NCBI GenBank assembly: GCA_021849125.1
Contig: JAJZTG010000006.1
Location: forward strand, 1-39,132
DNA from: a bacterium
GTDB lineage: Bacteria > Patescibacteriota > Minisyncoccia > Phycocordibacterales > Phycocordibacteraceae
DNA length: 39,132 nucleotides
Direction: 5' to 3'
The translations under genes and the position numbers were made by a program. Of this stretch, positions 3,741-25,141 are shown piece after piece (position 1 is the first letter of the stretch; every line of letters starts with the position of its first letter). The notes beneath the pieces were generated by a model, which was not told where the DNA came from, searched no databases, and saw nothing but the letters and a program-made list of their open reading frames with translations.

Positions 3741-3808
3741 GAATATCCCCAGAGAGCATTCGTTTTGGCGTACGTTATGCTACCGTGGTGAAAGGGAATG
3801 ACGGTTCC

Positions 3809-3956: not shown

Positions 3957-4112
3957 AGACCTGTCTCCTCTAGACATTGTAAATACGATAGGGTCAAATT
4001 TCATGTGGATAGCGGCATTCTGAAACGGTTGGGAAATTTTTCAATACAAGTGATGTGCCGTTTTAGCATCGTCTTAAGGACATGCAAATTAAGAGGTGCT
4101 ATTATGGAAAGT

Positions 4113-9220: not shown

Positions 9221-10325
9221 GGGTACCACCTCCTTCGTTAGGTTGGGTGCTTTGATTGGGTAGGAGCATCCGAGTCATCGCTGCCGCGATAGGAGCTAAG
9301 GTTTTGACGGTCTCAGGGTCAACTCCGCTCAAGTCAATAACGAAGTTGCTTTGGTTTGACGTGACGCCAGGGATTCCGTGCACTGCCGCAGCTAGGTGTG
9401 CAGCAGTGTTTGCGTTTACCGCGGCTTCCTTCATGCCCTTTTGCATAGCGAGAATCGAAGCCTGTTTCGCTTGAGCTGCTCGCGCTTCTGCCTCAGATGC
9501 TTCAACTTTGGCGTTAGCGGCGACGATACTCGGATCCTCGCGAACGCTCGGGGTCTGGAGTTGTACCTGAACCCCGAGACGAGCCAGGATGGATACGAAA
9601 TTCCCGGCTTCCGCAAGGATAGCTTGTCTGCCATCCGGGGAGAACATAGGTTTCGTTACACCGTCGCTGTCAGGAAAGTCTGCGGCCTCGAGCTTACGCG
9701 CAAAAGCAGCATGATCCGCGCCTTTCTCAAGTGCTAAGAATTCGATGAAAAGGTTTCTCTCATTACGAATCCCTGCGGCTTGAGAAAATTGGCCAAAGAA
9801 AAGACGAGCGCCTTGTAAGTATGCATCGGCGATCTGACCAAGCGGGTCACTTACCTCAAGAAAGCGATAAGGATGAACGATACGATACTTCAACGTATTT
9901 TCTCCCCCGCCATCTTCAACGACTCCGAACCAGATCGGTATACCATCCTGAGCGTCAATCTTTTCGCCTGGGATCGTAAGGATCTGAGGATTCGTCGATG
10001 AGGGAAGCTCCAACACCTTGCAGAACAAGGGGAGAACCCAATGATTGCCGCTTGCAAGACGTAGTTGGGGAGACCCCAGTATCAACACGATACCGTCGTA
10101 GCCTACCTGGACGGTTCGGAGACCGAGCCAGAAGATGCTCGCAGCGCTACCAAGCGATGCCAGGAGACTGCACAAGAAGCGCAGCGGTTCCCAGAGTGGA
10201 GACAAGTAACCCTCGTAGAGGATCTGCCATACCACCGAAGCGATAAAGAGACTCACGATGATGCCGAGAGACAGAGTGATTGCGGGCGTGAGAGGCCGCG
10301 CACGTGCAGTTTGAGACGTATGCAT
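9165..10325 (-). CDS. SPFH/Band-7 domain membrane protein
   Basis: GAGGAG before ATG 10325; two TMs then GLRTVQVGYDGIVLILG..LASGNHWVLP, AE-rich coiled coil. Confidence 0.7.
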   Translation of the reverse strand: MHTSQTARARPLTPAITLSLGIIVSLFIASVVWQILYEGYLSPLWEPLRFLCSLLASLGSAASIFWLGLRTVQVGYDGIVLILGSPQLRLASGNHWVLPLFCKVLELPSSTNPQILTIPGEKIDAQDGIPIWFGVVEDGGGENTLKYRIVHPYRFLEVSDPLGQIADAYLQGARLFFGQFSQAAGIRNERNLFIEFLALEKGADHAAFARKLEAADFPDSDGVTKPMFSPDGRQAILAEAGNFVSILARLGVQVQLQTPSVREDPSIVAANAKVEASEAEARAAQAKQASILAMQKGMKEAAVNANTAAHLAAAVHGIPGVTSNQSNFVIDLSGVDPETVKTLAPIAAAMTRMLLPNQSTQPNEGGGTHARRKRRSNRSGAQAAGK

Positions 10326-10426
10326 GTCTTTCTCCTCAAAGGACAAGCCTGACCGAAATGGGAAGGCAGCTGCGTATATAGTACATAAACTCTTTATAAA
10401 GTCAAGTACTGTATCGGATATTCCGG

Positions 10427-10508
10427 TGCTGAGGGGGAGACTTGAACTCCCATGGGTTGCCCCGTCTGCTCCTAAGGCAGGTGCGTCTACCAATTTCGCC
10501 ACCTCAGC
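10427..10508 (-). tRNA. tRNA-Leu(TAG)
   Basis: GCTGAGG..GCGAAATTGGTAGACGC..CT TAG GA..GGGAGTTCAAGTCTCCC CCTCAGCA. Confidence 0.95.
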
Positions 10509-10550
10509 GTCTTCCAAAACCAAAAAGGTTCTGATACGATACAGTGTACC

Positions 10551-10623
10551 GCGCCTATAGCTCAGTTGGTAGAGCAGCTCCCTCTTAAGGAGACGGTCCA
10601 AGGTTCGAGCCCTTGTAGGCGCA
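10551..10623 (+). tRNA. tRNA-Lys(CTT)
   Basis: GCGCCTA TAGCTCAGTTGGTAGAGC..CT CTT AA..CAAGGTTCGAGCCCTTG TAGGCGCA. Confidence 0.95.
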
Positions 10624-10988
10624 CAAAGCGAGTCCTCGAGTCTTGTACGCCTAAGCACGCTTGGGAAGCGTGCGTCTAGGGCGAGAAGACCTTGCGAGCA
10701 TTTTCTGGAGCAAGGCGAACAGAAAATCCGCAAGGTGTACTGAAGCTGTAAGCTTCGAGAAATGTACTCATGACCCTTGTAGGCGCACAAAGCGAGTCCT
10801 CGAGTCTTGTACGCCTAAGCACGCTTGGGAAGCGTGCGTCTAGGGCGAGAAGACCTTGCGAGCATTTTCTGGAGCAAGGCGAACAGAAAATCCGCAAGGT
10901 GTACTGAAGCTGTAAGCTTCGAGAAATGTACTCATGACCCTTGTAGGCGCACAAAGCGAGTCCTCGAGTCTTGTACGCCTAAGCACGC
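10610..10988 (+). repeat. 164-bp tandem repeat (2.3 copies) beginning in the tRNA-Lys 3' end
   Basis: Units start at 10610, 10774 and 10938 with cccttgtaggcgcacaaagcg; identical copies. Confidence 0.95.
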
Positions 10989-10992
10989 CTGG

Positions 10993-11035
10993 AAAATGAA
11001 GGAACGCCTTGCTTCGCAAGGCGTTCCTTCATTTT
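10993..11035. terminator. long hairpin/bidirectional terminator between convergent tRNA units
   Basis: aaaatgaaggaacgccttg-cttcg-caaggcgttccttcatttt. Confidence 0.85.
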
Positions 11036-11036
11036 G

Positions 11037-11125
11037 TGCCGAGGGTGGGGCTCGAACCCACACGATGGTTTTTAGGCCATCTCCGAGTTTTAAGCTCGGT
11101 GCGTCTACCATTTCGCCACCTCGGC
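11037..11125 (-). tRNA. tRNA-Leu(TAA)
   Basis: GCCGAGG..GCGAAATGGTAGACGC..CCGAG CT TAA AA CTCGG..GTGGGTTCGAGCCCCAC CCTCGGCA. Confidence 0.95.
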
Positions 11126-11133
11126 GCGGTGTA

Positions 11134-11934
11134 TCACACAGTATACCTATGAGGCCCGGGAGGGATTCGCACCCTCGCATAACGGTTTTGCAGACCGTCG
11201 CGTTGCTTCTTCGCCACCGGGCCTTTGTCCCTCAAGATGGACGGAATATCTTCGATGCAAAGGTCCCGTTCCTTTAGGTACGATATAAATATATCGTACT
11301 TTCGTTTAAGCCGCAGCTCTTTCTTTTCCTCTTCTTGATACATGAGCCGAAAAAGTTTAAGGCTATCTCGAGTCGAGTATCTCAGTTGATGGGCGTCGGG
11401 CGCACTCCCATGCCGGTATAACCCTCTTCCAGTGATGCTAGCGATCGAGACCAGTCTCTGGTGTAAGGTCGCTAAAAAGTCTCTGCTGCCGCTTGTAAAT
11501 ACGGTAAGTAGACGTTTTGACCGTCCTTGTCTGTCCCGGTCTATATACGCACCTCCGTCTCCATCAAAATATCCACGTATGAAATCACCAAGGAACTCGT
11601 CTGGAACAGCGGGGAAACTCATGGTGAGTGATTTGTGTGGCGTAACTCCGAGTCCAACAAGACTCTCGAAAAGTGCATGACTACCGATTCGTAGTAGGTA
11701 TTTTTTCTTGTGGTTCCCGCGTGCATCTTGCTGCACTATAGTGTGTGTCGAATGGAGAAGGGAACGTATTACAACGATGCGGTCCTTATCTGTACTAGTG
11801 ACGCGGACGTATTTGCCACGCAAGTAGGGTGCGTCCTCAAGGCTCCCATCTGCAAACAAAAAGCCAAGTACGTATGCCATCTCTGATTCCCACCGCAGGA
11901 AGAACCTTTCATTAACTGGATATTTGACCCCCAT
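11134..11934 (-). CDS. free-standing LAGLIDADG homing endonuclease-like protein
   Basis: Two motifs AYVLGFLFADGS and DFIRGYFDGDGG; GVTPHKSL; lower GC; TGtTACCAT 6 nt before ATG. Confidence 0.88.
   Translation of the reverse strand: MGVKYPVNERFFLRWESEMAYVLGFLFADGSLEDAPYLRGKYVRVTSTDKDRIVVIRSLLHSTHTIVQQDARGNHKKKYLLRIGSHALFESLVGLGVTPHKSLTMSFPAVPDEFLGDFIRGYFDGDGGAYIDRDRQGRSKRLLTVFTSGSRDFLATLHQRLVSIASITGRGLYRHGSAPDAHQLRYSTRDSLKLFRLMYQEEEKKELRLKRKYDIFISYLKERDLCIEDIPSILRDKGPVAKKQRDGLQNRYARVRIPPGPHRYTV
11152..11223 (-). tRNA. tRNA-Cys(GCA), non-canonical D/T loops
   Basis: GGCCCGG/CCGGGCC, ACGGT CT GCA AA ACCGT, U73; T-loop TGCGAAT. Confidence 0.88.
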
Positions 11935-11998
11935 ACAATAATGGTAACATCAAATCCTGCACAGATATGTATAATGCAAGGATAATGGGTGACTAGGA

Positions 11999-12316
11999 CT
12001 AGCGCTCCTCGGTGGCGTTTTCAGTCTCCTCGCGATTGTCGAGCATGAAGTCGATGCGCGGCAAGCCGTGGAGACGCGTGTGCGTCTTCAGGTGCTCAGA
12101 GAAATCCTTACGCTTGCGGTCGAGGAACGCGAGCGCTGCAGGAGCTTTCTCTTCTGGAAACACACTTACGAAGACGAGGACGCGTTCGCCTTTCGAGACC
12201 GACTGCGCGCGTACTACGGTAATGAGGGAGCCGCTACCGGCCTCTTCCGCGATGAAGCGTGCAGCTTCGTGAGTGATGATCTCGATCGCGCGCTTGTTAC
12301 GCTCGGAGGCATTCAT
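11999..12316 (-). CDS. rbfA: ribosome-binding factor A
   Basis: Directly downstream of infB (ATGA overlap); LITV..VFVSVFP..LPRIDF KH-like pattern. Confidence 0.8.
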   Translation of the reverse strand: MNASERNKRAIEIITHEAARFIAEEAGSGSLITVVRAQSVSKGERVLVFVSVFPEEKAPAALAFLDRKRKDFSEHLKTHTRLHGLPRIDFMLDNREETENATEER

Positions 12317-13782
12317 ACTTTTTCGATCGTGAACGCGACGACCTCGTCACCGTAGACGACCGGTTCGCGCAGCTCCATCTCCATGCCGAAATCGCCTTCG
12401 ACCTTGATTTCCGAGATGTCGGCGCGGGCTTGCTGCAGGTTCGTAATCTTGCCTTGAGCGATCTCTTCGCCATTGCGGATAAGCTTTACGCGGTCGCCGA
12501 GCGTGAGCGTGCCGGAGACGTGACGGGCGCCGAGCACCTGCTTTTTCGAAGTCGAAGAGAAGGGTTTCAGGACCTTTGCCCGTCCGAGCTCTTTCTCCGT
12601 GTCCATGGCAGGCACACGTTCCTTCAGGAGCTCTTCAACCTTTTCGGCGAGCTCGTAGATGATGGAGAAGGAGAGGATGGATACGTTGTCACGGTCGGCG
12701 AGATCGCGTGCGATCGCGTCGGTGCCGGTATTGAATGCGATTACGACGCCATCTGCGGCGTAAGCGGTCTTCACATCGTTTTCCGAGACGCTCCCGACGC
12801 CTGAGGCGATGATCCGTATGCTTGCGCGCTCGTGCATGATCTTCGAGAGCTCGTGTGCGATCGCATCGATCGAGCCAGCAACATCAGCCTTGACGATGAG
12901 CGGGAGTTCGATCATGCCTTGCGTAGCAGTGCTACGTTCGGGTTTCGCTGCCAGGGTCTTCGCCTGTGTGGTGGCGAGCGCTTCCGCCTCTTTCTTGGTA
13001 GCGACGACGCTGAAGAGAGAACCGGCGGACGGAAGCTTGCTGAAGCCTGAGATGCGTACCGGTGCGGACGGCCCCGCTTCCGTGACGCGCTTGCCGAGGA
13101 AGTCCTCGATGAAGCGTATCGGAGCATACGCATCGCCCGCGACGACGAATCCGTCGCAACGGAGCGTACCGTCCTTGAGGATGAGCGTCGCCGAGGCGCC
13201 GCGTTTCGGGTCTTGAGTAGATTCGAGCACGAAGCCGGTCGCGCTCGCTGCTGGGTCAGCCGTGAGCTCGGCCAGATCAGCCGCAAGGAGAACGAGGTCA
13301 AGAAGTTCCGAGACACCCTCGCCAGTCTTTGAGGAAACGGGCGCGTAAGCGATATCGCCACCCATGCCCTCGATGTAGATCTCGTGCTCGATGAGCGAGA
13401 ATTTTGTCCGATCGATGTCGGCGTTGTTCTTGTCGATCTTCGTGATGGCGACGATGTAGGGGATCCCGGATTCTTTGATGGCTGCGAGCGCATCAAGAGT
13501 CTGTGGCATGACGCCTTCATCGGCTGCAACGACAAGGATCGCGATATCAGCCGCGGCTGCACCGCGCGTGCGCAGACTCTTGAAAGCCTCATGGCCCGGC
13601 GTGTCGAGGAACGTGACCGGGCGGTTGTCGTGTGTCGCGATATATGCCGAGACATGCTGCGTGATGCCGCCCGCCTCATGAGCCACGACGTTAGCTTTCC
13701 GGATGTAATCCAGAAGGGAAGACTTGCCATGGTCGATATGACCCATCACCGCGATGACGGGCGGTCGTGTCTCCTTCGCCAT
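12313..13782 (-). CDS. infB: translation initiation factor IF-2 (short form, no N-terminal domain)
   Basis: [54 protein letters not shown]. Confidence 0.97.
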
Positions 13783-13831
13783 AATGGCTCTATTTCATCA
13801 CAAAAACGCTGAATTTTCAACCAGATAAAAT

Positions 13832-13990
13832 AAAAAGAGCCGCGTTCGCGACTCCTGGCAGGACGACCTTCAGGGAGGTAAGGTCGTCCTGCCGTGCATC
13901 CATCCGAACCCGTATGGCATAGTCTCGCATCGGAAGCAATGCCCGTCTGCTCCGAAGAGGGAGCGCGACTCACAGGTGGTGGAATCTGCA
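13832..13990 (-). ncRNA. candidate sRNA or structured infB leader
   Basis: TTGACA-N16-TAGAGT promoter (14022-13995), several hairpins including a 14-bp perfect stem, terminator-like gagtcgc-gaac-gcggctc-TTTTT. Confidence 0.5.
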
Positions 13991-14067
13991 CGCTACTCTA
14001 GCACGTACCATATATCTGTCAAGTATCAAAAGATAAGCGACCAGGAAGGTCGCTTATAGATAAAGGA

Positions 14068-14604
14068 TCAGATACCGGTCATATAGAAGCTGCCGACGCA
14101 TTTCCAATTGCCATCCTGGTCTTCTTTGTAGACGACAAGGAGTGTGGCGATAAATTCGATCGGTTCGACGCGTAACCGCTTGATCCGTGGATACGCTTTG
14201 TCAAAGATGCTCGAAGTGTGCCGGGCAAGCGTAATGTGCAACGTGTTTTCTCCTTCGTATCGGCCTCGGACATAGCCTGGAACCTCACGGATGATCTTGC
14301 AAGCAGAGATCCATTGTTCAGCCAGAGCGAGCGGAACCTTCGGTTGAAGGCTCAGATATTTCTTACCGAAGGGGTGTATCTCGTCGGTCGTGAAAGACAT
14401 CGGAGGCAGGTTCCTTGCAAGATGCTTGGCGATGCGCTGTATATCCTCCTCCTCGGCCTCGACTGGAGGAAAGAGGGTGATGTACGGCGGACGGGTACGA
14501 TACGGAGCCTCAAGGCCGGTAATCTTCGCGACTCGATCCATGAGCGCGCGGATCTTTCCGGATGCAGGCTCAGGGACATTGAGTGCGAAGATATAACGGG
14601 ACAT
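14068..14604 (-). CDS. 2H phosphoesterase (2'-5' RNA ligase family)
   Basis: PPYITLFPP and LHITLAR paired HxT-like motifs; GGGAG before ATG. Confidence 0.75.
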   Translation of the reverse strand: MSRYIFALNVPEPASGKIRALMDRVAKITGLEAPYRTRPPYITLFPPVEAEEEDIQRIAKHLARNLPPMSFTTDEIHPFGKKYLSLQPKVPLALAEQWISACKIIREVPGYVRGRYEGENTLHITLARHTSSIFDKAYPRIKRLRVEPIEFIATLLVVYKEDQDGNWKCVGSFYMTGI

Positions 14605-14693
14605 GAGAGGCTCCCTCACGAGTTGATCTGTCTGTACTGTACGTCTCCACTGGATGCCGAGTCAATCGGTCCGTATCGTGTAGAATACATAGC

Positions 14694-15842
14694 ATGTGGA
14701 TACGTCGACGGACCTATCTTGATGCGGCAGCAGGTATGGCGGGAAACCCATCATCGCCGCACGAGGAGGGACGGCGTGTGCGGACGATGCTCGAAGACGC
14801 ACGGACGCGCATCGCGCGGCTTCTTGAGGTGCAAGGTGATGACGTGATATTTACAAGCGGCGCGACAGAAGCGAACGCGCTCGCGATACTCGGGTACGTT
14901 CGAGCGACGAGGAAACGTGCCGGAAGCGATACGCCGGGCAGGAACAACCTGCATGTGCTCTACCTTCCGAGCGCGCATGCCTCGATCGTCGAGAATGCCA
15001 AGCGTCTCGCGCTTGAGGGCGTGACCGTCGAGCCTCTTCCTATAAAGGACTCCCGTGTCGATGTGGCGCTCCTTGCGGAGATGATCAGACCCGAAACGGT
15101 CCTGGTCGCGATGGAAGCGGTGTGTGGCGAAACCGGTGTCGTATGGAATACGCGCGAGGTAGGAGAAGTACTACGCAAGGCGCGTACCAGTGACAGGCCA
15201 GCTATCGTGCTGCACGTCGACGCGAGCCAGGCACCGCTTACGGAGAAGATCACACGGGATCATTTCGGCGCAGGGACGCTCGTGCTTGATGCGTCGAAAG
15301 TCTCGGACGTACGCAGCCTGGGCGTGCTTATCGCGCATCGGACCATCCCGCTCGAATCGTTGTATGGCGGTGGCGGTCAGGAAAGGGGTCTGAGGCCCGG
15401 CACGGAGAATCCAGAAGGGGCGGCACGGTTTGCAGCGGCGCTTGAGAGCGTCGTGAGAAGCCGCGCAGCGTTCCGCAAGAAGTCCGGCAAGATCCGGAAA
15501 CTCTTGGCCGAGCGCATCCTGAAAGATATTCCGAACGTGTTCGTGCAGGAAGGGAAGGAACAGGTTCCGAATATCCTGAACGTCGCCCTTGTCGGGAGGG
15601 ATACGGACTACCTCGTGGCCCTCCTTGACGAGGCTGGGTTTGCAGTCTCGACCAAGAGTGCTTGCGAGACTGACTCGGAAGAAGGCTCACGTGCGGTTTT
15701 TGTCCTCACCGGCGACGCGGAACGGGCTCGGGCGACCCTTCGAGTCTCTTGGGGGCCGGGCTTTTCAGCTCGCGCGGCTGCACGGTTCGTAAGAGCGCTT
15801 GTGCGGGAAACCGCGTTTATTGACAAAGGTTCATCAGAATAG
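14694..15842 (+). CDS. IscS/NifS-like cysteine desulfurase (class V PLP enzyme)
   Basis: YLDAAA, GNPSSPH, FTSGATEAN, HVDASQ, DASK, GGGQERGLRPGTEN, STKSAC. Confidence 0.9.
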   Translation: MWIRRRTYLDAAAGMAGNPSSPHEEGRRVRTMLEDARTRIARLLEVQGDDVIFTSGATEANALAILGYVRATRKRAGSDTPGRNNLHVLYLPSAHASIVENAKRLALEGVTVEPLPIKDSRVDVALLAEMIRPETVLVAMEAVCGETGVVWNTREVGEVLRKARTSDRPAIVLHVDASQAPLTEKITRDHFGAGTLVLDASKVSDVRSLGVLIAHRTIPLESLYGGGGQERGLRPGTENPEGAARFAAALESVVRSRAAFRKKSGKIRKLLAERILKDIPNVFVQEGKEQVPNILNVALVGRDTDYLVALLDEAGFAVSTKSACETDSEEGSRAVFVLTGDAERARATLRVSWGPGFSARAAARFVRALVRETAFIDKGSSE

Positions 15843-15856
15843 CATCATACTTTTAT

Positions 15857-16624
15857 ATGAATATCGAGGAACTCTCCAAATCTCAGCTCATACTTCTCAC
15901 GATACTCGTGAACTTCGTGACCTCGGTCGCGACCGGCATCCTCACGGTCTCGCTTCTTGATCATGCTCCTGCCTTCGTAACCCAGACGGTAAACCGTGTC
16001 GTCGAGCACACCATCGAGACGGTCGCTGCCGCAGCTCCTGCCGCTATCATCCAAGCACCAGCTCCCTCGAACCAGGATCTCGTCACTGCTGCGATCGGTG
16101 CTGATGCTGCTCGTATCGTCGCTATCTATGACGCCGCGACAGGCACTTCGACGCCTGTGGTGAGTCCGGGGTCGTACATCGCGAAGTCGCGCATCGTCGT
16201 GACCGCTGCACAAGACGATCTGCCGAAAGAGGCGCTTATCGAATTCACGACAGGGAGCTACGTCGCGGCTTCTCTCTCGAAGGCTGGTAAAGGGATCGCG
16301 ATTTACGGGTTCGCTGATGACGCTGTCTTGCCGAAGATCTCCTCACCTGCTTTGGTCCCAGCAAGCGAGCTTAAGCTCGGCGAGACCGCTCTCTCGGTCA
16401 GCGCTGATGGCACCGCAGCGACCGGTATCGTGGCACGGATAAGCGCTAAGGGGATCAGCACGACGTTGCCGGAAATCGGGGTCGGCACCGCGGTCGTCGA
16501 TCTCTCGGGTAATCTCATCGGCATCGGCATCGGATCACCTTCCGGTCTTCTCGTCGGCACGGACACGATCAACGCCATTCTCGCTCCTGCGCCTTCGACC
16601 GCAACGTCGACCCCGGCAAAATAA
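15857..16624 (+). CDS. membrane-anchored trypsin/HtrA-like protein, probably catalytically dead
   Basis: N-terminal TM; LKLGETALSV..TGIVA..AVVDLSGNLIGI resembles the HtrA protease C-lobe. Confidence 0.6.
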   Translation: MNIEELSKSQLILLTILVNFVTSVATGILTVSLLDHAPAFVTQTVNRVVEHTIETVAAAAPAAIIQAPAPSNQDLVTAAIGADAARIVAIYDAATGTSTPVVSPGSYIAKSRIVVTAAQDDLPKEALIEFTTGSYVAASLSKAGKGIAIYGFADDAVLPKISSPALVPASELKLGETALSVSADGTAATGIVARISAKGISTTLPEIGVGTAVVDLSGNLIGIGIGSPSGLLVGTDTINAILAPAPSTATSTPAK

Positions 16625-16630
16625 GCGATT

Positions 16631-19309
16631 ATGCCTCCTTTTAACAATTTCACTACCAAAGCCAAGGAAGCCGTGCGTCATGCGCACGAGCTTGCCATAG
16701 AGCGTGGCCAGAACCACGTCTCGCCGCTCCACCTGCTTGCCGCGCTCGTCCTGCAGGAAGAATCCCTGGTATTTTCACTTCTCGACCGGATGGAGGTCGA
16801 CACGATCATGCTTGCCGACAATATCCTCGAGCACCTCGAAGCTCCAGAGACCTCCGCGACCCTTTCGCCGTCGTATCAGATCTACCTCACGCCAGAACTC
16901 GCACAGGCCTTGGAAGCCGCCGGCAAGATCGCTGCACGTCTGAATGATGCTTTCGTCGGGACCGAACACCTTTTCCTCGCGGTACTCGAACACCCTGGGC
17001 CCGCTTCCGACATCCTCGCGCGCTTCTCGATCAAGAAAGACTTGGCGCTTTCGATACTCAAGGAGATCAGGTCATCCAAGGACGCTGACGAAGGCGAGCC
17101 GCGCCGTTTCCGGGCGCTTGCGAAATATGCGCGCAATCTGACGAAGCTTGCTGCAGAAAACAAGCTCGATCCGGTCATCGGTCGCGATAGCGAGATCAAT
17201 CGCGTGATCCAGATCCTCGCGCGGCGCACGAAGAACAATCCGGTCCTGATCGGCGAAGCAGGTGTCGGTAAGACAGCGATCGCTGAAGGTTTGGCTGTGC
17301 GTATGGCCATGGGCGACGTACCCGACTCGCTCCGAGGCAAGGAACTTCTGTCGCTCGATCTCGGTCTTATGATCGCAGGAACGAAATACCGTGGCGAGTT
17401 CGAGGAGCGTATGAAGAACGTGATGAAGGAGGCCGAGCGCGCAGAAGGCAAGATCATCATCTTCATCGATGAGCTCCATACGCTCGTGGGTGCCGGCGGT
17501 GCGGAAGGCGCGATGGATGCATCAAACATGCTGAAACCTGCGCTCGCGCGCGGCGAGATCCGCGTGATCGGGGCAACGACCCTCAAGGAATATCAGAAGC
17601 ACATCGAGAAGGACGCTGCGCTTACGCGTCGTTTCCAGCCAGTGTATGTCCAGGAGCCTTCGGTCGAAGACGGTATCGCGATCTTGCGCGGCCTGCGCGA
17701 CAAATACGAGCTTTTCCATGGCGTACGTATCACTGACGGAGCGATCGTCGCTGCAGTCGAGCTGTCGAGCCGCTACATCAGCGACCGTTTTCTGCCGGAC
17801 AAGGCGATCGACCTTATCGACGAAGCTGCTTCTGGCCTCCGCATCGCGCTTGAGAACAAGCCGCCGCTCCTTGAGGAGACCGATCGCAAGATCCGTCGTC
17901 TTGAGATCGAGAAGCAGGCGCTTCAGAAAGATCTCGATAGCGAGCAGGCGAAGGAGATCAAGGAACGTATCAAGGGTATCGATAAGGAGATTGCCGATCT
18001 GCGCGAGAAGACGCAAGAGCTCGAACTCAAGTGGAAGAACGAGAAAGAGGTCCTGAACAGTATCCGTGCCGCAAAGACGGAGCTCGAGGAGCTTAAGGTC
18101 CAAGCAGACAACGCCGAAGCGGCTGCTGATCTCGGTACGGTCGCGGAGATCCGCTACGGGAAGATCCCGCATATCCAGAAAGACCTCGAGACGAAGCTCA
18201 AGCGCTTGAAGACTCTTCAGAAATCGCGTCGCGTCTTGAACGAAGAAGTGACCGAGCAGGAAATCGCTGCTGTCGTCTCGCGCTGGACCGGCGTGCCCGT
18301 AGCGAAGATGCTTGAAGAAGAGGCGGCCAAGCTCTCGCGCATGGAAGAGGCCCTGAAAGGGAGCATCATCGGCCAGGATGCTGCCGTGAAAAAGGTGACG
18401 GACGCCGTGAAGCGCTCACGCGTGGGTATCAGCGACCCGAATCGTCCGATCGGCTCGTTCCTCTTCCTCGGGCCGACCGGTGTCGGTAAGACCGAGCTTT
18501 CGAAGAAGCTCGCCGAGTTCATGTTCAACGATCCGGACGCATTGGTGCGTGTCGACATGTCAGAGTTCATGGAGAAGCATTCGGTGGCGAAACTCATCGG
18601 CGCGCCTCCGGGCTACGTGGGGTACGAGGAGGCCGGTTCGCTTACCGAAAAGATCCGTCATCGCCCGTACGCCGTAGTGCTCTTCGACGAAGTCGAGAAG
18701 GCTCACCCGGAGGTTTTCAATATCCTCCTGCAGGTCCTTGATTCGGGACACCTGACCGACGGCAAGGGCCGCAAGGTCAATTTCAAGAACACGATCATCG
18801 TGCTCACGTCCAACATCGGCGGCGAGTTCATCGACAAGCTCGCGCACATGGGCTTCGGCACGGTGAACGCGACGGAAGCGACCCGCTTCGAGGAGACGAA
18901 GGAGAAGGTCATGGGCGCTCTGCGTGAGCACTTCCGTCCGGAGTTCTTGAACCGCCTTGATGACATCATCATCTTTGATCCGCTTGCCAAGGAAGCGCTC
19001 GCACAGATCGTAGATGTGCAAGTGGAGGAGGTCGTGAAGCGTCTGGCACAAAAGCGCATCGTCCTCAATATCGCGCCTGAAGTGCACGCCTGGCTCGCCG
19101 AGAAGGGCTACAGTCCGGAGTATGGCGCCCGTCCGCTTCGCCGTGCGATTCAGGATGCGATTCTGACCCCGCTCGCCTCGCTCATGATTGGCCAGGGTCT
19201 CATGGAGGGCGGTACCGCCACCGTCTCGATCAGGGCGGGTGAACCGCATTTCGAGATCAAGAAGGCCCCCGTCCGCACCCGCCGCCCGAAGGCAGCTGCG
19301 GTTGCTTAA
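16631..19309 (+). CDS. clpB: ClpB disaggregase
   Basis: Clp N repeats, [16 protein letters not shown], long M-domain (AEIRYG), [25 protein letters not shown]. Confidence 0.93.
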
Positions 19310-19339
19310 GAACGGCCGGTCTGCTATAGTTTCCGCACT

Positions 19340-19495
19340 ATGTCACAGATTCGCCTTATCAAGCTCAAGTCGACGAAGTCGCCGCACGTCATCTGGACGC
19401 GCAAGAACAAGAAGACGACTGAGCGCAAGATCGAGCTCACCAAGTTTGATCCGACTATCCGCGCGCGCGTCACCTTCAAGGAGGCGAAGAAATAA
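19340..19495 (+). CDS. rpmG: 50S ribosomal protein L33, Zn-free type (not in ORF track)
   Basis: MSQIRLIKLKSTKSPHVIWTRKNKKTTERKIELTKFDPTIRARVTFKEAKK. Confidence 0.93.
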   Translation: MSQIRLIKLKSTKSPHVIWTRKNKKTTERKIELTKFDPTIRARVTFKEAKK

Positions 19496-19497
19496 GC

Positions 19498-19540
19498 AAA
19501 ATATAAAACGCGGACCATTTTGGGTCCGCGTTTTATATTT
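19498..19540. terminator. bidirectional terminator
   Basis: aaatataaaacgcggacc / ggtccgcgttttatattt. Confidence 0.85.
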
Positions 19541-19573
19541 TATCCGCAGGTACACAGGCTGATTTTATCTTCG

Positions 19574-20752
19574 CTACGAGCGCGTCAATCTACGCTCTGA
19601 GAGCGATACAGAAAACATGAGGAGAATGAGGCCGCTGATTACAACAATTCCCGCACAAAGAAACGCGAAAGAAGGGCTGAATGCTTGCCAGAGCCAGCCG
19701 CCGCCGATGCCGGCAAGGAGCGCGCCGAACCCGGTGACCGCCTGAAGCCAGCCGAGTCCTTTCCCGCGGACTTCTGCCGCAGAGAGTTGGGAGGCGTACG
19801 AGCGTTGTACGCCGTCAGTCAGTGCCGGAAAGAGACCGAGCGTGAGGAAGCCGAAAGCAAGCGACCATGCACCACCGGCAAGGGCGATCACTGCGTAGCC
19901 CACGAGCAAGAAGACATACCCGATGATGATGACGATCGGTGCGCCGAAACGATCGCTCGCGCGTCCGGCCGGAAGCGAGAAGACGGCATAGGAGAGGTTG
20001 TAGGCCATATAGAAGAGCGGGATATTGGCGATGAGGAGGCCGAGCGATTCCGTCTGGAGCAGCATGACCGCGATCGGAAGCGAGCCTACCGAAAGGACGA
20101 AAAGCGAGAGGAGGTAGAGCTTGAAACGGCGTGAGAGGGCACCGCTTCCGGTCGTTGCAGTCTTCAATTGCGTCGTCACGACATCACGGATGAAGAAAAG
20201 CGTCGCGATAGAAAGAAGGCCGACGACGAAGGCGGTCAGGAAGACCTTATCGAAATCAAGCGGGAAGGCGCGAAGGATGAGATAGGCGACCAGCGGCCCC
20301 AATATCGCCCCTATCGTATCCATAGCGCGGTGGTAACCGAAGGAACGTCCGAGAGTATCTTCCGACGCGGAGAAGGAGATAAGCGCGTCTCGTGCTGGGT
20401 CGCGCAGCCCCTTGCCCACACGGTCGAGGAAACGCAAACCGAGCGTCCCAGAAACCGTGGAGACGAGGACATAGAACGGACGCGTCGCGACGGAAAGGGC
20501 GTATCCCGTGATGATGAACGGCTTACGGCTCCTGATCTTGTCAGAAAGCCGGCCTGAGTAGACCTTGAATGCGTTTGCGGTCGCTTCGGCAATGCCGTCG
20601 ACGAGACCGAGCGAGGCTGCACCGGCGCCGAGGATGGAAGTGAAGAATGCAGGGAAGGCCGCAAAGACCATCTCGGAAGAGAAGTCATTGAAGAGGCTCG
20701 TGAGGCCGAGGATGAAGACGTTTTTCGGCAGGCCGAAGATACGCTCGAGCAT
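19574..20752 (-). CDS. MFS transporter
   Basis: About 12 TMs, GRLSDKIRSRK and GRASDRFG motif A, RFLDRVGKGLR. Confidence 0.92.
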   Translation of the reverse strand: MLERIFGLPKNVFILGLTSLFNDFSSEMVFAAFPAFFTSILGAGAASLGLVDGIAEATANAFKVYSGRLSDKIRSRKPFIITGYALSVATRPFYVLVSTVSGTLGLRFLDRVGKGLRDPARDALISFSASEDTLGRSFGYHRAMDTIGAILGPLVAYLILRAFPLDFDKVFLTAFVVGLLSIATLFFIRDVVTTQLKTATTGSGALSRRFKLYLLSLFVLSVGSLPIAVMLLQTESLGLLIANIPLFYMAYNLSYAVFSLPAGRASDRFGAPIVIIIGYVFLLVGYAVIALAGGAWSLAFGFLTLGLFPALTDGVQRSYASQLSAAEVRGKGLGWLQAVTGFGALLAGIGGGWLWQAFSPSFAFLCAGIVVISGLILLMFSVSLSERRLTRS

Positions 20753-20777
20753 GAGTAGATGATAGCAGAGTACTGAT

Positions 20778-21016
20778 CACCAGGATCGCGAGTACGCGTA
20801 TCGATCCTTAGAGGATCAACTCTCAAGGTTTTCGATTCCTGGTCGCGAAGTCTCCCAGACTTCGCTTGGGTCCGCCTGTGGTCACAGATAATTCAGTTGC
20901 CGTCGCAACTGAATTTCCGCGATCCCGGCTCGCGGTTTTGTCTGCTGACAAAACATCGCTGCGCCTCCCGCAAATGAGAAAAGACTGGAGCAGTCCAGTC
21001 TTTTCTCATTTGCGGG
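20778..21016 (-). mobile_element. tRNA-Trp 3'-linked structured element (two modules)
   Basis: 23-bp hairpin including the tRNA 3' end, antisense T-arm copy at 20831-43, direct tRNA fragment at 20778-85. Confidence 0.6.
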
Positions 21017-21083
21017 CCCACCAGGAATCGAACCTGGACTAGCGGTTTTGGAGACCGCTGTTCTACCACTAAACTATGGACCC
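21013..21083 (-). tRNA. tRNA-Trp(CCA)
   Basis: GGGTCCA..GCGGT CT CCA AA ACCGC..CCAGGTTCGATTCCTGG TGGGCCCG. Confidence 0.95.
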
Positions 21084-21186
21084 GAAGTGAGGCGGAACGA
21101 AGTAATGCCTCGCAGTACTCACGATACCAGAAAGCAGGGTGGGGGAAAAGCACGCACCGAAGCTTTCTGCACGGTATGATACGAGT

Positions 21187-22173
21187 ATGCGTTCCCGCGC
21201 CACTTTTCTCGCACTCTTCATCATCATAGGGTCATTCGCATTACCGCACCTCGCGCATGCGGGCGGCATCCCTTTCTTCGGCCCCATCATCCCCAAGGAT
21301 TACAGTATCTGCCCAGCAGGATGGGGACTGCTCATCACGGTTGTGAACAACATCATCAGTCTGCTCCTTACTCTGATGATCACCTTTGTCGCGCCGCTCA
21401 TGATCGCGTACGCAGGTTTCTTGCTCGTCGTAAATCGAGGGGACTCGGGGGCTATCAGCAAAGCAAGAGGGATATTTACAAACATCGTCGTTGGTCTTGT
21501 CGTGTCTTTTTCGGCATGGATGATCGTCGATTGGATCATGGCAGCGCTCTATAGCCCTTCGGACGTCGGAGGTACCTGGTCGAGTCTCATTTCCGGAGGA
21601 GGCGATGCCTGTCTCCCGCAGAAAGGCGCACTTCCGGGCGAAGGGTTAACCTCGGCAGGGTCCACAGGCGTAGCGACAAGTCCTGGTACAGGCGCATGTG
21701 CAGTAACGCCGCTCACGCCGCTTGCTACCGCTCTCGCCCAGAGAATGGAATCAGGACAGACGATCATTTGGGATAACACCGATTCACGATTGAAGCCTTG
21801 TGTCGACAAGTTCATCGGCCAGGTCGGAGGGACGGTCACTTCTGCATACCGCCCAGCGGAATACCAGTCACATTTGCGGGAAATATACGATAAGTGGTGC
21901 GGACAAGGGTTGAAAACAAATACTCAAGTTGCGTGTACCAGCATAAAAAGCGCGATCTCGACGGAGGTAGGCAAACATTTCGGTTCTAGTTGGAGTTGCG
22001 GTTCCGTCGGCCAGACATCCCAGCACTCTTCAGGTACGGCAGTCGACATAAGCGGTATCAATCACAGTAGCGCGGCAGTGCAGCAAGCCGCTGCCTCGTC
22101 TTGTCTCACCTGGCGGAATTATCCGGGCGATCCCTACCACTACGACCTCAAGTCTTCTTGTTCCTGCCGATAA
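21187..22173 (+). CDS. VirB2-like pilin fused to a C-terminal M15-type Zn peptidase domain
   Basis: YAGFLLV..KARGIFTNIVVG pilin core; TSAYRP, SQHSSGTAVD, DPYH. Confidence 0.75.
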   Translation: MRSRATFLALFIIIGSFALPHLAHAGGIPFFGPIIPKDYSICPAGWGLLITVVNNIISLLLTLMITFVAPLMIAYAGFLLVVNRGDSGAISKARGIFTNIVVGLVVSFSAWMIVDWIMAALYSPSDVGGTWSSLISGGGDACLPQKGALPGEGLTSAGSTGVATSPGTGACAVTPLTPLATALAQRMESGQTIIWDNTDSRLKPCVDKFIGQVGGTVTSAYRPAEYQSHLREIYDKWCGQGLKTNTQVACTSIKSAISTEVGKHFGSSWSCGSVGQTSQHSSGTAVDISGINHSSAAVQQAAASSCLTWRNYPGDPYHYDLKSSCSCR

Positions 22174-22184
22174 CTTAAAGGAGC

Positions 22185-23000
22185 TTAACGTCCTAGTTTC
22201 CGAAGCCACGCGCGTTGGCGGCGCGCGTACTGCCAGAGTTTTGCTGAAAGCGCGGGGAGAAGCGATGTCTCGGTGCGCTCGCCACGCAGGTACTCTCCGA
22301 CGAGACGATACTCGAGTCCGAGCTCGTTCAGGCGAGCGTCGCCCACGTCTCTACGAACACGGCGCACTTCTTCTACAAGCCGGCGATCGAGCGCTTGCTC
22401 GAGTCGTGTGTCGATGCGTTCGCGGAGCTCTTCGCGCGGGGGATTGATGATGATCCACTCTGCGTCGTAAGCAGGTACGAGTTTTCGTGAAGGCACTTTG
22501 CCGTGTGCCTCGATGATCTCAAGGGCGCGTATGAGGCGACGGCGGTTGTGCGGATCGAGCGCGGCCGCGCGGTCAGGATCAGCTGCATTGATGCGTGCGA
22601 CGAGCTCTTCATTAGAAAGCTTTTCGAGCTCCCCGCGTAGCGTGAGATCCGGGTTTGTCTCTTCCGGAAGGCCATACAGGAGCGCATCGAAATAGAAATG
22701 CGTGCCACCGGCGAGGATGGGGAGTTTGCCACGTGCGCTGATCTCTCTGATGAGTTCGGTCGCGTCTTTGACGAAATCGCCCGCAGAGTATGCATCTCTC
22801 GGGTCTCGGATGTCGATCAGATGATGAGGGACACTGCGCATCTCTTCCCGAGTGATCTTTTCAGTGCCGATATCAAGACCGCGATAGACTTGCCGCGAAT
22901 CGACGGAAATCACTTCGCCGCCGCGCGTGAGCGCTTCCTCGACCGCACGCGCGGATTTTCCTGAAGCAGTGGGCCCTGCGATGCAGAGAATTTGTGCCAT
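22185..23000 (-). CDS. miaA: tRNA dimethylallyltransferase
   Basis: GPTASGKS, ISVDSRQVYRGLDIGTEK, PHHLIDI, YARRQRAW. Confidence 0.96.
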   Translation of the reverse strand: MAQILCIAGPTASGKSARAVEEALTRGGEVISVDSRQVYRGLDIGTEKITREEMRSVPHHLIDIRDPRDAYSAGDFVKDATELIREISARGKLPILAGGTHFYFDALLYGLPEETNPDLTLRGELEKLSNEELVARINAADPDRAAALDPHNRRRLIRALEIIEAHGKVPSRKLVPAYDAEWIIINPPREELRERIDTRLEQALDRRLVEEVRRVRRDVGDARLNELGLEYRLVGEYLRGERTETSLLPALSAKLWQYARRQRAWLRKLGR

Positions 23001-23047
23001 GACTCGATGCGATGGTATCATACCCGGTACCTAACCAGAATACGCCT

Positions 23048-23707
23048 ATGAAAGAAATGAAAAGCAATTATTGTGAACACTGCGGGGAATTTCACGACTC
23101 TGTCCGCGATTTCGTCACACAGGTGAAGGTCGGTGAGACCGTCCCGGATTTCGAATTCGAGGTCTATCACAATGATGAGATCAAGACCATGAGCTTCTCG
23201 CAGCTCCGCGGCAAGTGGACGATCGTCGTCTTCTATCCGGCTGACTTCACGTTCGTCTGTCCGACCGAGCTTGAAGAGCTTGCAAAGCTCTACCCGAAGT
23301 TCCAGGAGCTCAATGCCGAGATCATCTCAGTCTCTTCGGATACGGTCTTCACGCATAAGGCGTGGCACGACACTTCGGAGGGCATCAAGGCGATCAAGTA
23401 CCCGATGGCCGCTGACCCTTCGGGCAAGATGGCGTACGCATTCGGCGTCCTTATCGAGGGCGGAGAAGCGCAGCTCACTCCGGATGAGGGTCTCGCGATG
23501 CGCGGTACCTTCATCATCGATCCGTCCGGCACGCTCCGCGCGATGGAGGTGAATGACAACTCGATGGGTCGCAAGGCCGCTGAGACGATGCGTAAGCTCC
23601 AGGCAGCGCAGTACGTCGAGACGCACAAGGGCAATGTCTGTCCGGCCTCCTGGGAGCCAGGCGATGACACGCTTGAGCCGGGTCTCGACCTGGTCGGCAA
23701 GCTCTAA
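23048..23707 (+). CDS. ahpC: 2-Cys peroxiredoxin AhpC with N-terminal CxxC extension
   Basis: FYPADFTFVCPTE, RGTFIIDP, VCPASW; start 23048 or 23057. Confidence 0.92.
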   Translation: MKEMKSNYCEHCGEFHDSVRDFVTQVKVGETVPDFEFEVYHNDEIKTMSFSQLRGKWTIVVFYPADFTFVCPTELEELAKLYPKFQELNAEIISVSSDTVFTHKAWHDTSEGIKAIKYPMAADPSGKMAYAFGVLIEGGEAQLTPDEGLAMRGTFIIDPSGTLRAMEVNDNSMGRKAAETMRKLQAAQYVETHKGNVCPASWEPGDDTLEPGLDLVGKL

Positions 23708-23723
23708 TCCCGCAGGGAAAACA

Positions 23724-23751
23724 AAAGCCCCGCTCTGTAAAGCGGGGCTTT
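23724..23751. terminator. bidirectional terminator
   Basis: aaagccccgct-ctgtaa-agcggggcttt. Confidence 0.85.
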
Positions 23752-23754
23752 GCC

Positions 23755-24222
23755 TTATCTCATGATGAGCGAGCAGCCGAACTTTTCTTGTTCGAGAAGC
23801 AGGCAGGCATGATAAGGGACGTTTGCTTGAAGATCTACCTCTTGTTGAGGCGGGGGAGGGAAAGGTTCGCCGGTAGAACAGCATTCCTCTCGCTCCATGT
23901 TACGCCTCGTGGTGTCGGAATTGTTGTAGAAAGAAAGCACGGGCTGTACGAGCAGTTGAGAGAAAATCCTGTACTCTTCATACGTAAGCGGAACTACGCC
24001 TGAATTTTTCTTGACCGTTATAGCGATGTTTTCCCGTTCCTTTTCCTCGCATCTGAGGTATTGGCCGGGATTTCTCACCACCGTCGGGACATTCGGATTG
24101 AACACTATCTTGTACTCAAAGCTAGTGTCCGCGATGGTAATCTGGCCCTCGTAATCAACATCTTCAACGACTTGCTGGATCGAAAGACGTAATTCCACGA
24201 AAAAACCTTTTAACGTGTTCAT
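23755..24222 (-). CDS. hypothetical protein
   Basis: GGAGG before ATG 24222; TTGACA-N17-TACCGT upstream; low GC. Confidence 0.6.
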   Translation of the reverse strand: MNTLKGFFVELRLSIQQVVEDVDYEGQITIADTSFEYKIVFNPNVPTVVRNPGQYLRCEEKERENIAITVKKNSGVVPLTYEEYRIFSQLLVQPVLSFYNNSDTTRRNMEREECCSTGEPFPPPPQQEVDLQANVPYHACLLLEQEKFGCSLIMR

Positions 24223-24337
24223 GTCAGACCTCCAATCTGAATAACCTACACGCAAAGAAACGAGCATTTCTGGTATGCACGGTAACCCCATGGTAAACAG
24301 GTGTCAATTGGAGAGTTGCCGAAACTGAAATAGTGAA

Positions 24338-24361
24338 GGCGGAACCATAATGGTTCCGCCT
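24338..24361. terminator. hairpin/terminator
   Basis: aggcggaacca-taa-tggttccgcct. Confidence 0.6.
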
Positions 24362-24591
24362 AGAGGATCAATCGGGCCCTTTTCCGGCCTCTGCGTCGTA
24401 GACGCCAAGGACTTGATCCAACGGGGTGCCGAAACGTCCCCTATCCTTGTGCCGGGTGGTATGCCCGGCCATTACTTCGTCGACGCGTATGCATCGTTGT
24501 CTCCTCTCTCGTTGTGGAGAATCTAAAAAGAGTATTGCGTATATATAGGTATTTGTCAATACTTCGCAGATTCGTTTTTGTACCAAAGCTT

Positions 24592-24782
24592 GGTCACGAG
24601 TCGCTAACCGTTTTGCTCCAGGCATTCGCAAAACGCTAAGCGCTCTCGACCCCGGCTCGCTATCCTCGCAGAGCCTCGGACATAGCTGCGCCTTTCAAGT
24701 CCCTCACGCATGACGCGCAGGCGTCATGCTTCCCGGCACAAACGAAAACAGCCCCCTGCGGGCTGCTTCATTTGTGCCAGGA
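24592..24782 (-). mobile_element. tRNA-Leu 3'-linked structured element
   Basis: Trailer pairs with the acceptor 3' strand; antisense T-arm GAGGGACTTGAA (24694-705); motifs shared with the Trp element. Confidence 0.6.
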
Positions 24783-25042
24783 GAGGGACTTGAACCCTCA
24801 CGCCTTTCGACAATTGGTTTTGAATCAATCGCGCCCCGATACTGAAAACGCTGTGCTGGAGGAGGGACTTGAACCCTCACGCCTTTCGACAATTGGTTTT
24901 GAATCAATCGCGTCTACCATTCCGCCACTCCAGCGTTTCAGTACGGGGTGCATCTACCATTTTACCCCGTACCAAACCGAGCGTGCGTCCTCTATCCATC
25001 TACCGTGCGATTACGGTTTTGGTATGGGGCCGACATCCCGGC
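24775..25042 (-). pseudogene. outer tRNA-Leu(CAA) split by two palindromic insertions
   Basis: GCCGGGA (25042-36) pairs with TCCTGGC-A (24782-75); D-loop piece 24949-64; anticodon/V/T arms 24783-833; extended -10 10 nt upstream. Confidence 0.7.
24854..24934 (-). tRNA. tRNA-Leu(CAA), intact nested copy
   Basis: GCTGGAG TG GCGGAATGGTAGACGC G ATTGA TT CAA AA CCAAT..GAGGGTTCAAGTCCCTC CTCCAGCA. Confidence 0.92.
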
Positions 25043-25141
25043 TATGTGTTGAAGGGTAGCATATGCTAAAATCTTTTTCATGAGCCCCGTTAGAAAATTT
25101 CTCACGAACAGTCTATTGCTCTCGAAATCTTTCTGCACGAT

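Follow-up and report, generated by a model that had tools for sequence, protein, structure and literature searches.

A hairpin-forming, protein-less repeat family with arms matched to the host tRNA at the 3′ ends of tRNA and tmRNA genes in Patescibacteriota

Introduction

The described systems closest to the sequences reported here are the PATEs of the IS200/IS605 group and the REP/REPIN sequences, both served by Y1 HUH enzymes; the integrative elements of tRNA and transfer-messenger RNA (tmRNA) genes, together with their integrase-less remnants (cis-mobilisable elements); the attC sites of integrons and attP(+) of CTX-type phages; and the bacterial palindromic repeats resembling miniature inverted-repeat transposable elements (MITEs), among them Correia, RUP, ERIC and the Rickettsia palindromic elements. 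In this study, a stretch of 39,132 nucleotides (nt; positions 1 to 39,132 of contig JAJZTG010000006.1, assembly GCA_021849125.1; hereafter the window) from a bacterium of the family Phycocordibacteraceae (Patescibacteriota) was analysed, in which the genes for tRNA-Lys(CTT), tRNA-Trp(CCA) and tRNA-Leu(CAA) are followed by short non-coding elements with scaffolds of two types, A and B. The elements are best explained, at a probability of about 0.45, as a non-autonomous, protein-less, hairpin-forming family of DNA repeats that homes to the 3′ ends of tRNA and tmRNA genes and is supplied with its enzyme from elsewhere. A first-pass annotation of the window had proposed a non-autonomous, non-coding family tied to tRNA 3′ ends, bearing no established name and with its enzyme outside the window; the results agreed on each count and added tmRNA to the hosts.

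Read in the orientation of the host gene, an intact copy consists of the tRNA, whose positions 54–74 form the left arm (X-left), a loop (L), an antisense arm (X′), a scaffold of type A or B, a right arm (X-right) and the original flank. X′ reproduces tRNA positions 74 to 54 in exact reverse complement and is usually split by a small GC-rich hairpin into an acceptor part and a T part, the latter called the guide below. X-right repeats the tRNA tail in direct orientation, beginning in the T-loop (55/60) and ending at position 74.

Like PATEs and REPINs, the elements are small, protein-less, hairpin-rich and orientation-specific. Their hairpins lie near both ends on one strand (tail:X′, the small GC-rich hairpin, and the scaffold hairpins P2/P3 and P4, all on the tRNA-sense strand), a short stretch by the hairpin foot is complementary to the site of insertion or cleavage, and they would be expected to act as folded single-stranded DNA with an enzyme provided in trans from a single-copy gene, a Y1 homologue being encoded in their own genome. 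They differ in that the complementary stretch is 12 + 9 nt long and target-specific instead of a fixed 4–5 nt, and in that the target is a variable tRNA tail with a flanking target copy of 15–21 nt instead of a fixed 4–5-nt target without a repeat; moreover, 12 of 47 element-bearing relatives gave no Y1 match, and the Y1 gene of the own genome is flanked by unrelated palindromes. With the tRNA/tmRNA integrative elements and their remnants the family shares the 3′ target, the regeneration of the gene by a carried copy of its tail, a direct repeat ending at the gene end and tandem accretion at one site, but it is 10–1000 times smaller, has neither an integrase nor inverted core sites around the overlap, and contains an antisense copy of the tail and a conserved core with covarying helices.

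The long, imperfect hairpin in which arm pairing restores a recombination site, the structure more conserved than the sequence, the head-to-tail pile-up and the units of 60–170 nt recall attC and attP(+). Unlike in those systems, no integron integrase or attI turned up (no IntI-specific model was run), target sites number dozens per genome, with copies at 13 sites in the own genome, and the arms are the tail of the host tRNA and not a fixed core. Bacterial MITE-like palindromes are likewise short, non-coding, able to fold back, multicopy and often near terminators; they have constant terminal inverted repeats, a short fixed target duplication and many kinds of site, whereas here the neighbouring gene supplies the sequence of the arms and only tRNA tails serve as sites. 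Casposons duplicate 14–15 base pairs (bp) at tRNA ends; a casposon-like element would be without its integrase here, the own genome having given no match to Cas1 (PF01867).

Searches of Rfam 15 (the window at curated thresholds, both regions of interest at loose E-values) returned only tRNAs and chance-level matches, and full-text literature searches, with supplementary files outside their scope, gave nothing on such elements. TIGR-Tas was set aside since, according to the abstract of its description, guide arrays lie there beside Tas genes. The family therefore looks undescribed.

Structure and site of insertion

The elements always had the orientation of the host gene and began immediately after its 3′ end, and a complete tRNA preceded every element, so that the gene was left intact. 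A recognisable right repeat was present in 57 of 74 copies. Between positions 59 and 60 of this repeat, 0 nt were inserted in 23 copies, 1–2 nt in 13, 14 nt in 18 and another number in 3, and base 59 was that of the tRNA in 52 of the 57, even across the 14-nt insert, a mini-hairpin whose stem covaries between copies as read from the alignment. In most intact copies X-right ended on the last encoded base of the tRNA. The first-pass annotation had placed the resumption of tRNA sequence precisely at position 60; tRNA sequence does resume there after both type B copies of the window, but position 60 is not where the repeat begins, since T-loop bases 54/55–59 precede the mini-hairpin. The beginning of the repeat is thus in the T-loop, the 59/60 "junction" being a point of insertion inside it.

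The tRNAs for Tyr and Glu have a G-U pair in the acceptor stem, at which X′ holds the Watson–Crick partner and not the base of the tRNA 5′ strand. X′ is therefore a complement of the 3′ strand, and derivation of X′ as a copy of the 5′ strand was ruled out. An intron in the T-loop (59/60) was likewise ruled out by the intact tRNA upstream of each copy and by the tolerance of cut-down copies; no match to RVT_1 or RtcB was obtained in the genome and none to an intron or ribozyme in Rfam (the splicing endonuclease family was not searched). The idea of a primer-binding site was rejected because the antisense arm pairs with the trailer of the gene and not with the CCA end.

The mode of addition could be read at tRNA-Arg(TCG), a site that is empty in the own genome, where tRNA-Gly(GCC) follows 40 nt downstream, and filled by a type B element in two relatives. 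The filled site consists of L, X′, the scaffold and a 15-nt repeat, after which the flank continues as in the empty site; L + X′ + scaffold + X-right were thus added after position 74 or, equivalently, X + L + X′ + scaffold before the tail. The L of the filled site has no counterpart in the trailer of the empty one.

The order of tail copies, sense–antisense–sense, would also be produced if the elements were by-products of replication, with snap-back synthesis at the terminator hairpin and the palindromic T-loop giving the three tails and the cores spreading by gene conversion only. This origin agrees with the perfect palindromes centred on the terminator loop, with an antisense copy extending precisely to the T-loop start and a direct copy resuming inside that loop, with the repeats at Glu(CTC) and Lys, which include the trailer (about 50 nt), and with the exchange of modules between copies described below. 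It leaves the origin of the 70–100-nt cores unexplained, no coreless triplicated tail was seen in the own genome, the L of the filled Arg(TCG) site is not derived from the empty-site trailer, and mixed arrays contain two different cores; we consider it quite improbable.

Matching of the arms and distribution

A constant scaffold with an antisense part that follows the host tRNA had been claimed from three loci, and the relation held widely. For the 7 variable bases of the guide, at most 1 mismatch to the own tRNA was found in 58 of 74 copies (from other genomes, with a parsed tRNA), against 6.7% when the pairing was shuffled among other tRNA types.

The own genome (G000; 578 kb, 7 contigs, rated 99.6% complete) contains 39 tRNA genes and 1 tmRNA gene, and 13 of these 40 carry an A or B element of 150–270 nt directly 3′. 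BLAST with the three trailers of the window located scaffolds also behind tRNA-Glu(CTC), Tyr, His, Ser(CGA) and the tmRNA gene, and a scan of every tRNA for antisense of its own T-loop added Leu(GAG), Asp, Ser(GCT), Val(GAC) and Ser(GGA); the scaffold motifs of both types, known at first from the window, thus recur at other tRNAs. No acceptor-antisense hairpin was found at the element-free tRNAs of this genome. At Glu(CTC) and Lys the repeat takes in the trailer as well, about 50 nt.

Other, unrelated-looking inserts that likewise repeat the tRNA tail occur behind tRNA-Gly(CCC) and tRNA-Ile(GAT). On contig C6 (21708–21858, minus strand), two adjacent tRNA-Gly(CCC) genes were called, the second of which is an artefact caused by a nested pair of a different short insert repeating pieces of the T-arm and acceptor of two Gly tRNAs. 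On contig C4 (1284–1500, plus strand), the insert behind tRNA-Ile(GAT), of yet another type, consists of a sense T-arm copy and, between this and the terminator, a repeated acceptor end.

Covariance models for types A and B were built in this analysis and applied to a panel of 61 related genomes. Type A was detected in 47, with up to 24 copies, several of them in tandem, and type B in 30, with up to 23 copies; every genome with type B also carried type A. BLAST with the Lys unit matched 23 of the 61. A degenerate 27-letter pattern of the B core was found in more than 120 stretches of a species genome collection and in more than 120 metagenome contigs; the species-genome matches listed (80) were all from Patescibacteria or unclassified bins, many with Parcubacteria-type labels and some labelled Saccharibacteria. 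In 2.9 million viral contigs the pattern gave 0 matches and a 21-nt type A word likewise 0, and a 16-nt type B word gave a single chance match within a coding region and with no tRNA. Of 401 genomes drawn evenly across the phylum, 2 contained the exact B pattern, both from the own order; as sampled, the family is thus common in one order and not phylum-wide.

The position behind tRNA and tmRNA genes was retained in these collections. A tRNA or tmRNA gene lay on the same strand within 600 nt upstream in 56 of 82 exact-pattern matches in species genomes and within 300 nt in 81 of 104 non-edge metagenome matches, and some of the matches without a called tRNA proved to follow tRNAs that bear group I introns or are decayed. 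For type A in relatives, a tRNA or tmRNA was found 25–88 nt upstream, with 0–2 guide mismatches, at 9 of 11 loci. The host genes comprise at least 17 tRNA types and tmRNA.

Group I introns were identified at loci L064 and L070; the tRNA gene bearing type B at L064 was missed by ARAGORN owing to its intron, and L064 also has a match to the c-di-GMP-II riboswitch. At L070 (about 7740–7850), a lone type B core lies between tRNA-like tail sequences that form a perfect inverted repeat of 20 bp, with no tRNA within 330 nt upstream and with the small hairpin missing.

Scaffold structure, as DNA or RNA

In an alignment of 91 type B cores, 96.8% of the cells of two helices were paired, compared with 76.4% in shuffles, and 206 cells showed double changes against 68 ± 5.5 in shuffled alignments, none of 500 of which reached 206; controls with slid pairing gave at most 53. 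The core contains a helix, P2, with the variable AT-rich hairpin P3 at its tip, and a hairpin of 7 bp, P4, whose three-base loop is constant, P2 and P4 being connected by an invariant six-base joiner and the guide and P2 by a constant short run. Together with the pairing of the arms, the core would, on our interpretation, form a three-way junction. The last three pairs of P4 use T-loop bases 55–57 of X-right, so that the T-loop part of the guide and P4 compete for these bases. Type A has covarying helices of its own, and an AT-rich hairpin in which the 12-base loop is similar occurs in both types. None of the hammerhead, box C/D with kink-turn or T-loop mimics could be fitted by eye to the type B core.

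Among the 1086 cells of P2 and P4, 1037 were Watson–Crick pairs, 11 G-U and 14 A-C, and between guide and tRNA 808 were Watson–Crick, 18 G-U and 9 A-C. P4 closes in a triloop of the G-N-A type; such triloops are especially stable in DNA. X-left, L and X′ form a perfect palindrome of at least 23 bp that runs through AT tracts and the stem of L and looks templated rather than selected. In the own genome, L is usually a GC stem followed by a T run directly before X′, as in a terminator, so that most transcripts should end before the scaffold. The rarity of G-U, the perfect palindrome and the terminator-like L lean towards folded DNA over RNA.

The main competing explanation is a structured RNA made together with the tRNA, in which the trailer would hold an antisense clamp for the 3′ half of the tRNA, a conserved junction core and a decoy 3′ half. 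With the clamp free to pair either to the tRNA or to the decoy, the module would switch tRNA folding or processing, or would give rise to a small RNA with a tRNA end. The cis-antisense regulator of tRNA maturation suggested in the first-pass annotation belongs here; the few G-U pairs and the terminator-like loop disfavour it relative to single-stranded DNA folding, and it is still a live rival, if a rather doubtful one. The elements always lie in tRNA orientation and upstream of the final terminator, copies between co-transcribed tRNAs or 25 nt after the tRNA must be transcribed, the helices covary with invariant flanking bases, the right repeat stops at the last encoded tRNA base in most intact copies, and the elements have been kept in streamlined genomes. 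In the predicted minimum-energy fold of tRNA-Tyr with its element, moreover, X-left pairs with X′ and the 5′ strands of the tRNA with X-right, and these two alternative pairing states would make an RNA switch physically possible. Set against this, G-U pairs are as rare as A-C (11 against 14 of 1086 cells), which is unusual for RNA under structural selection; little read-through is expected past the terminator-like loop before X′ in the own-genome copies that were read; and many copies are cut down (8 nt of repeat at Trp, none at Leu(CAA)) though these tRNAs are single-copy and must work. Which tRNAs bear elements also varies between sister genomes, X′ pairs with positions 73 and 74 so that the end is unlike a tRNA acceptor end, and no Rfam family matched.

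Search for an enzyme

The single tyrosine recombinase of the genome lies next to rpsO and beside no array, and is, on our reading of the sequence, probably of the Xer type. Two large serine recombinases are encoded, neither adjoining an A or B copy. One of them (448 amino acids; contig C5, 39347–40779) is convergent with tRNA-Met(CAT) and ends, by estimate, a few bases from the 3′ end of that gene, possibly at the edge of an integrated element.

One homologue of Y1 transposases (229 amino acids) was also found, for which the best named match was the REP-associated tyrosine transposase model, below the cut-off of that model. Its gene (contig C4, 46000–47510; locus L153) is flanked by near-perfect palindromes and adjoins an NYN-domain gene; a third copy of the palindrome is situated inside the Y1 reading frame without breaking it, and related palindromes occur nearby. 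In a tally over the related genomes, Y1 homologues were present in 40 of 61, namely 35 of the 47 with elements and 5 of the 14 without. At seven Y1 loci no A or B core was found beside the gene by motif search; the covariance model gave one B-like core, upstream of the Y1 gene of genome G009. There, behind tRNA-Leu(GAG) (locus L158, contig C2, about 47060–47680), a type B element is cut after P2 by a unit containing the Y1 gene and ending in 13-nt inverted repeats. The association of Y1 with the elements is a lead, not a link, and the Y1 homologue, the Xer-type recombinase and the two large serine recombinases are only candidates for the enzyme.

A bridge-like mechanism had been raised on account of the antisense segment. 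That segment is antisense to its own tRNA, as had been described, but the "guide" belongs to a long inverted repeat of positions 54–74, as an arm whose partners are the tRNA itself and the downstream copy; and with no IS110-type recombinase domain (PF01548) in the genome, a bridge-RNA mechanism would be without its enzyme here.

T-loop-class tyrosine integrases leave a direct repeat from the T-loop to the end of the tRNA gene. The elements could accordingly be scars of such an integrase, that is, attL/attR of a phage, plasmid or island in the T-loop with the interior deleted and the scaffold as attachment-site arms, and the target in the 3′ part of tRNA/tmRNA genes, the direct repeat from T-loop to gene end and a size near that of a full attachment site are all in keeping with it. 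We regard this origin as highly improbable: the sole tyrosine recombinase, next to rpsO, reads as a housekeeping Xer type, the core pattern was absent from 2.9 million viral contigs against more than 120 occurrences in species genomes, no copy has a gene-bearing interior, compensatory changes in at least four hairpins are unexpected for protein-binding arms, a base-for-base antisense tail has no role in an attachment site, and 13 separate scars in 578 kb would be required. On the features compared, the bridge-RNA, intron, integrase-scar and ordinary MITE readings fail.

Turnover of copies

Tandem arrays of identical units are present at Lys and elsewhere, and mixed arrays of A and B at Trp and at locus L018. 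The host tRNAs of the elements differ between sister genomes. The scaffold tree does not track tRNA type; on 74 B cores it required 49 changes of tRNA type, with a minimum of 16 and with 54.8 ± 2.0 after shuffling, 4 of 500 shuffles being as low. Mosaic copies have identical P2–P3 alongside a different P4, mini-hairpin and small hairpin, from which it follows that resident copies exchange their cores. In three genomes, the elements behind tRNA-Glu(TTC) have the small hairpin in common and not P2–P3. At a particular tRNA, the arm-side parts may thus be long-standing, and moves to a new target tRNA may be infrequent.

Proposed mode of action and significance

If the elements are DNA repeats homing to tRNA ends, their active form would be folded single-stranded DNA, in which pairing of X′ with the tail copy gives a long stem displaying the target and the scaffold is the part recognised by a trans-acting protein. 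Insertion and loss would take place at or within the repeated tail, loss also by simple recombination between the two repeats, and the arms might be kept matched to the host tRNA by intrastrand copying (template switching of the quasipalindrome type) together with selection on the tRNA.

Several observations weigh against a mobile DNA repeat. The own genome, though 99.6% complete, gave no match to RVT_1, IS110 (PF01548), TnpB, RtcB, rve, DDE_Tnp_1 or Cas1 (PF01867). The long copies encoding an enzyme that the first-pass annotation had suggested looking for did not appear among about 240 matches in species genomes and metagenomes, where apparent long inserts or distant tRNAs were accounted for by group I introns in the tRNA, by tRNA decay or by tandem arrays. 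Neither circles nor excised forms nor insertions in progress were seen; four DNA sequencing runs over positions 10000–25500 gave only low-depth contigs of relatives and no usable joint. The palindromes flanking the Y1 gene are distinct from the A and B elements and, with 3 exact copies genome-wide, show no dispersal, and the 12 element-bearing relatives without a Y1 match include one with 8 B and 11 A copies (G041). Arm-side modules common to one tRNA type across genomes imply that many copies may be old residents with recombined cores and not recent transpositions. At the Arg(TCG) site in relatives, copies between co-transcribed tRNAs have an AT-only L; from this position, as from that of some type A copies 25 nt after the tRNA, it follows that such copies must be transcribed. 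Lasting presence in very small genomes could also mean a host function.

A more specific proposal is programmable, pairing-guided DNA insertion, in which the 21-nt antisense arm by the hairpin feet would recognise the sense strand of a strongly transcribed tRNA gene in its single-stranded state, direct insertion after the gene and also mark the right end of the element, while a small conserved DNA fold would recruit an enzyme, of the host or other, and the guide could be re-written by intrastrand copying from the target. We regard this as unlikely; if true, the 4-nt guides of IS200/IS605 elements would have a long-guide equivalent in organisms mostly without CRISPR, and a long, re-writable guide on single-stranded DNA would be of interest for targeted DNA insertion. 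Mobility in itself would represent a new strategy of harmless selfish elements, parked behind an essential gene, carrying a spare tail and finding the site by pairing; as RNAs, the elements would be the first trailer-encoded clamps on tRNA folding. Under any explanation, as many as about half of the tRNA loci bear them in certain genomes from a large group of ultra-small bacteria. They also provide a ready marker for gain and loss in organisms not yet grown alone and account for odd partial tRNA calls such as the false second tRNA-Gly on contig C6, for which reason annotators should mask or name them.

Loci of the window

In the window, 7 tRNA genes were called by ARAGORN and 1 more by Rfam, and 3 of these carry elements on their 3′ side (Table 1). 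The trailer hairpins reported to extend into the acceptor 3′ strand were recovered at all three, with arms fully matched at Trp (23/23) and 1 mismatch at Lys (10616–10653). So were the reverse-complement copies of the own T-arm, matched at 13/13 positions at Trp, 12/12 at Leu(CAA) and 9/12 at Lys; over the 12 positions 54–65, the mismatches number 0, 0 and 3, respectively. The common scaffolds were found where they had been described, type B at Lys in two full units and at Trp in shortened form, and type A at Trp and Leu(CAA).

The Lys array comprises 2.3 units of 164 nt (10610–10992). At Trp, the order 3′ of the gene is the perfect hairpin, the type A scaffold and the shortened type B element; the inner part of the hairpin is terminator-like and was flagged by a terminator scan (20996–20982, minus strand). 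The Leu(CAA) element is attached to a partial second copy of the tRNA and not to the intact gene.

Table 1. Positions of the element-bearing tRNA genes and of the parts of their elements in the window
Feature	Positions	Strand	Remarks
tRNA-Lys(CTT)	10551–10624	+	X-left (positions 54–74) at 10604–10624
Lys element, unit 1 of the 164-nt tandem array	10610–10773	+	type B
Lys unit 1, copy of tRNA positions 60–74	10610–10624	+	followed by loop L
Lys unit 1, acceptor antisense	10645–10653	+	
Lys unit 1, small GC hairpin	10654–10675	+	
Lys unit 1, antisense of positions 54–65	10676–10687	+	9/12 matched
Lys unit 1, type B scaffold	10688–10759	+	
Lys unit 1, mini-hairpin	10760–10773	+	
Lys unit 2	10774–10937	+	100% identical to unit 1; guide 10840–10851; type B scaffold 10852–10923; covariance-model match 10840–10923
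Lys partial unit 3	10938–10992	+	copy of tRNA 60–74, loop, acceptor antisense; ends within the small hairpin
Bidirectional terminator-like hairpin closing the Lys array	10993–11035		arms 20/20; faces tRNA-Leu(TAA)
tRNA-Trp(CCA)	21012–21083	-	X-left (54–74) at 21012–21032
Trp perfect 23-bp hairpin, acceptor 3′ end and trailer against antisense	20967–21016	-	arms 23/23; starts within the acceptor 3′ strand
Trp type A scaffold	20880–20966	-	no guide of its own; between two acceptor-antisense copies; covariance-model match 20880–20971
Trp shortened type B element	20778–20878	-	
Trp type B, second acceptor antisense	20867–20878	-	
Trp type B, small hairpin	20844–20866	-	
Trp type B, antisense of tRNA 54–66	20831–20843	-	13/13
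Trp type B, short B scaffold	20800–20830	-	
Trp type B, mini-hairpin	20786–20799	-	
Trp type B, cut-down repeat of tRNA 60–67	20778–20785	-	8 nt kept
tRNA-Leu(CAA), intact	24853–24934	-	
Partial second tRNA-Leu(CAA) copy, about position 23 to 74	24774–24833	-	acceptor strand differs; 93% repeat; weak Rfam tRNA match 24783–24852
Leu(CAA) type A element	24592–24782	-	right-hand repeat lost
Leu(CAA) hairpin into the acceptor strand of the partial copy	24731–24782	-	
Leu(CAA) small hairpin	24706–24730	-	
Leu(CAA) antisense of 54–65	24694–24705	-	12/12
Leu(CAA) type A scaffold	24592–24693	-	covariance-model match 24592–24705

Minor observations in the window

The tRNA called by Rfam and missed by ARAGORN (3835–3935, minus strand) is 101 nt long, with a UCC anticodon, a variable arm of about 30 nt and an encoded CCA-like end, and its flanks (3800–3824 and 3941–3965) form a 25-nt inverted repeat that is 88% complementary. 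Between 6981 and 8669, a segment of 44–52 nt is present in 4–5 copies at a spacing of about 440 nt, which look like tandem paralogous small genes, and a 30-nt tandem repeat is located at 6484–6541.

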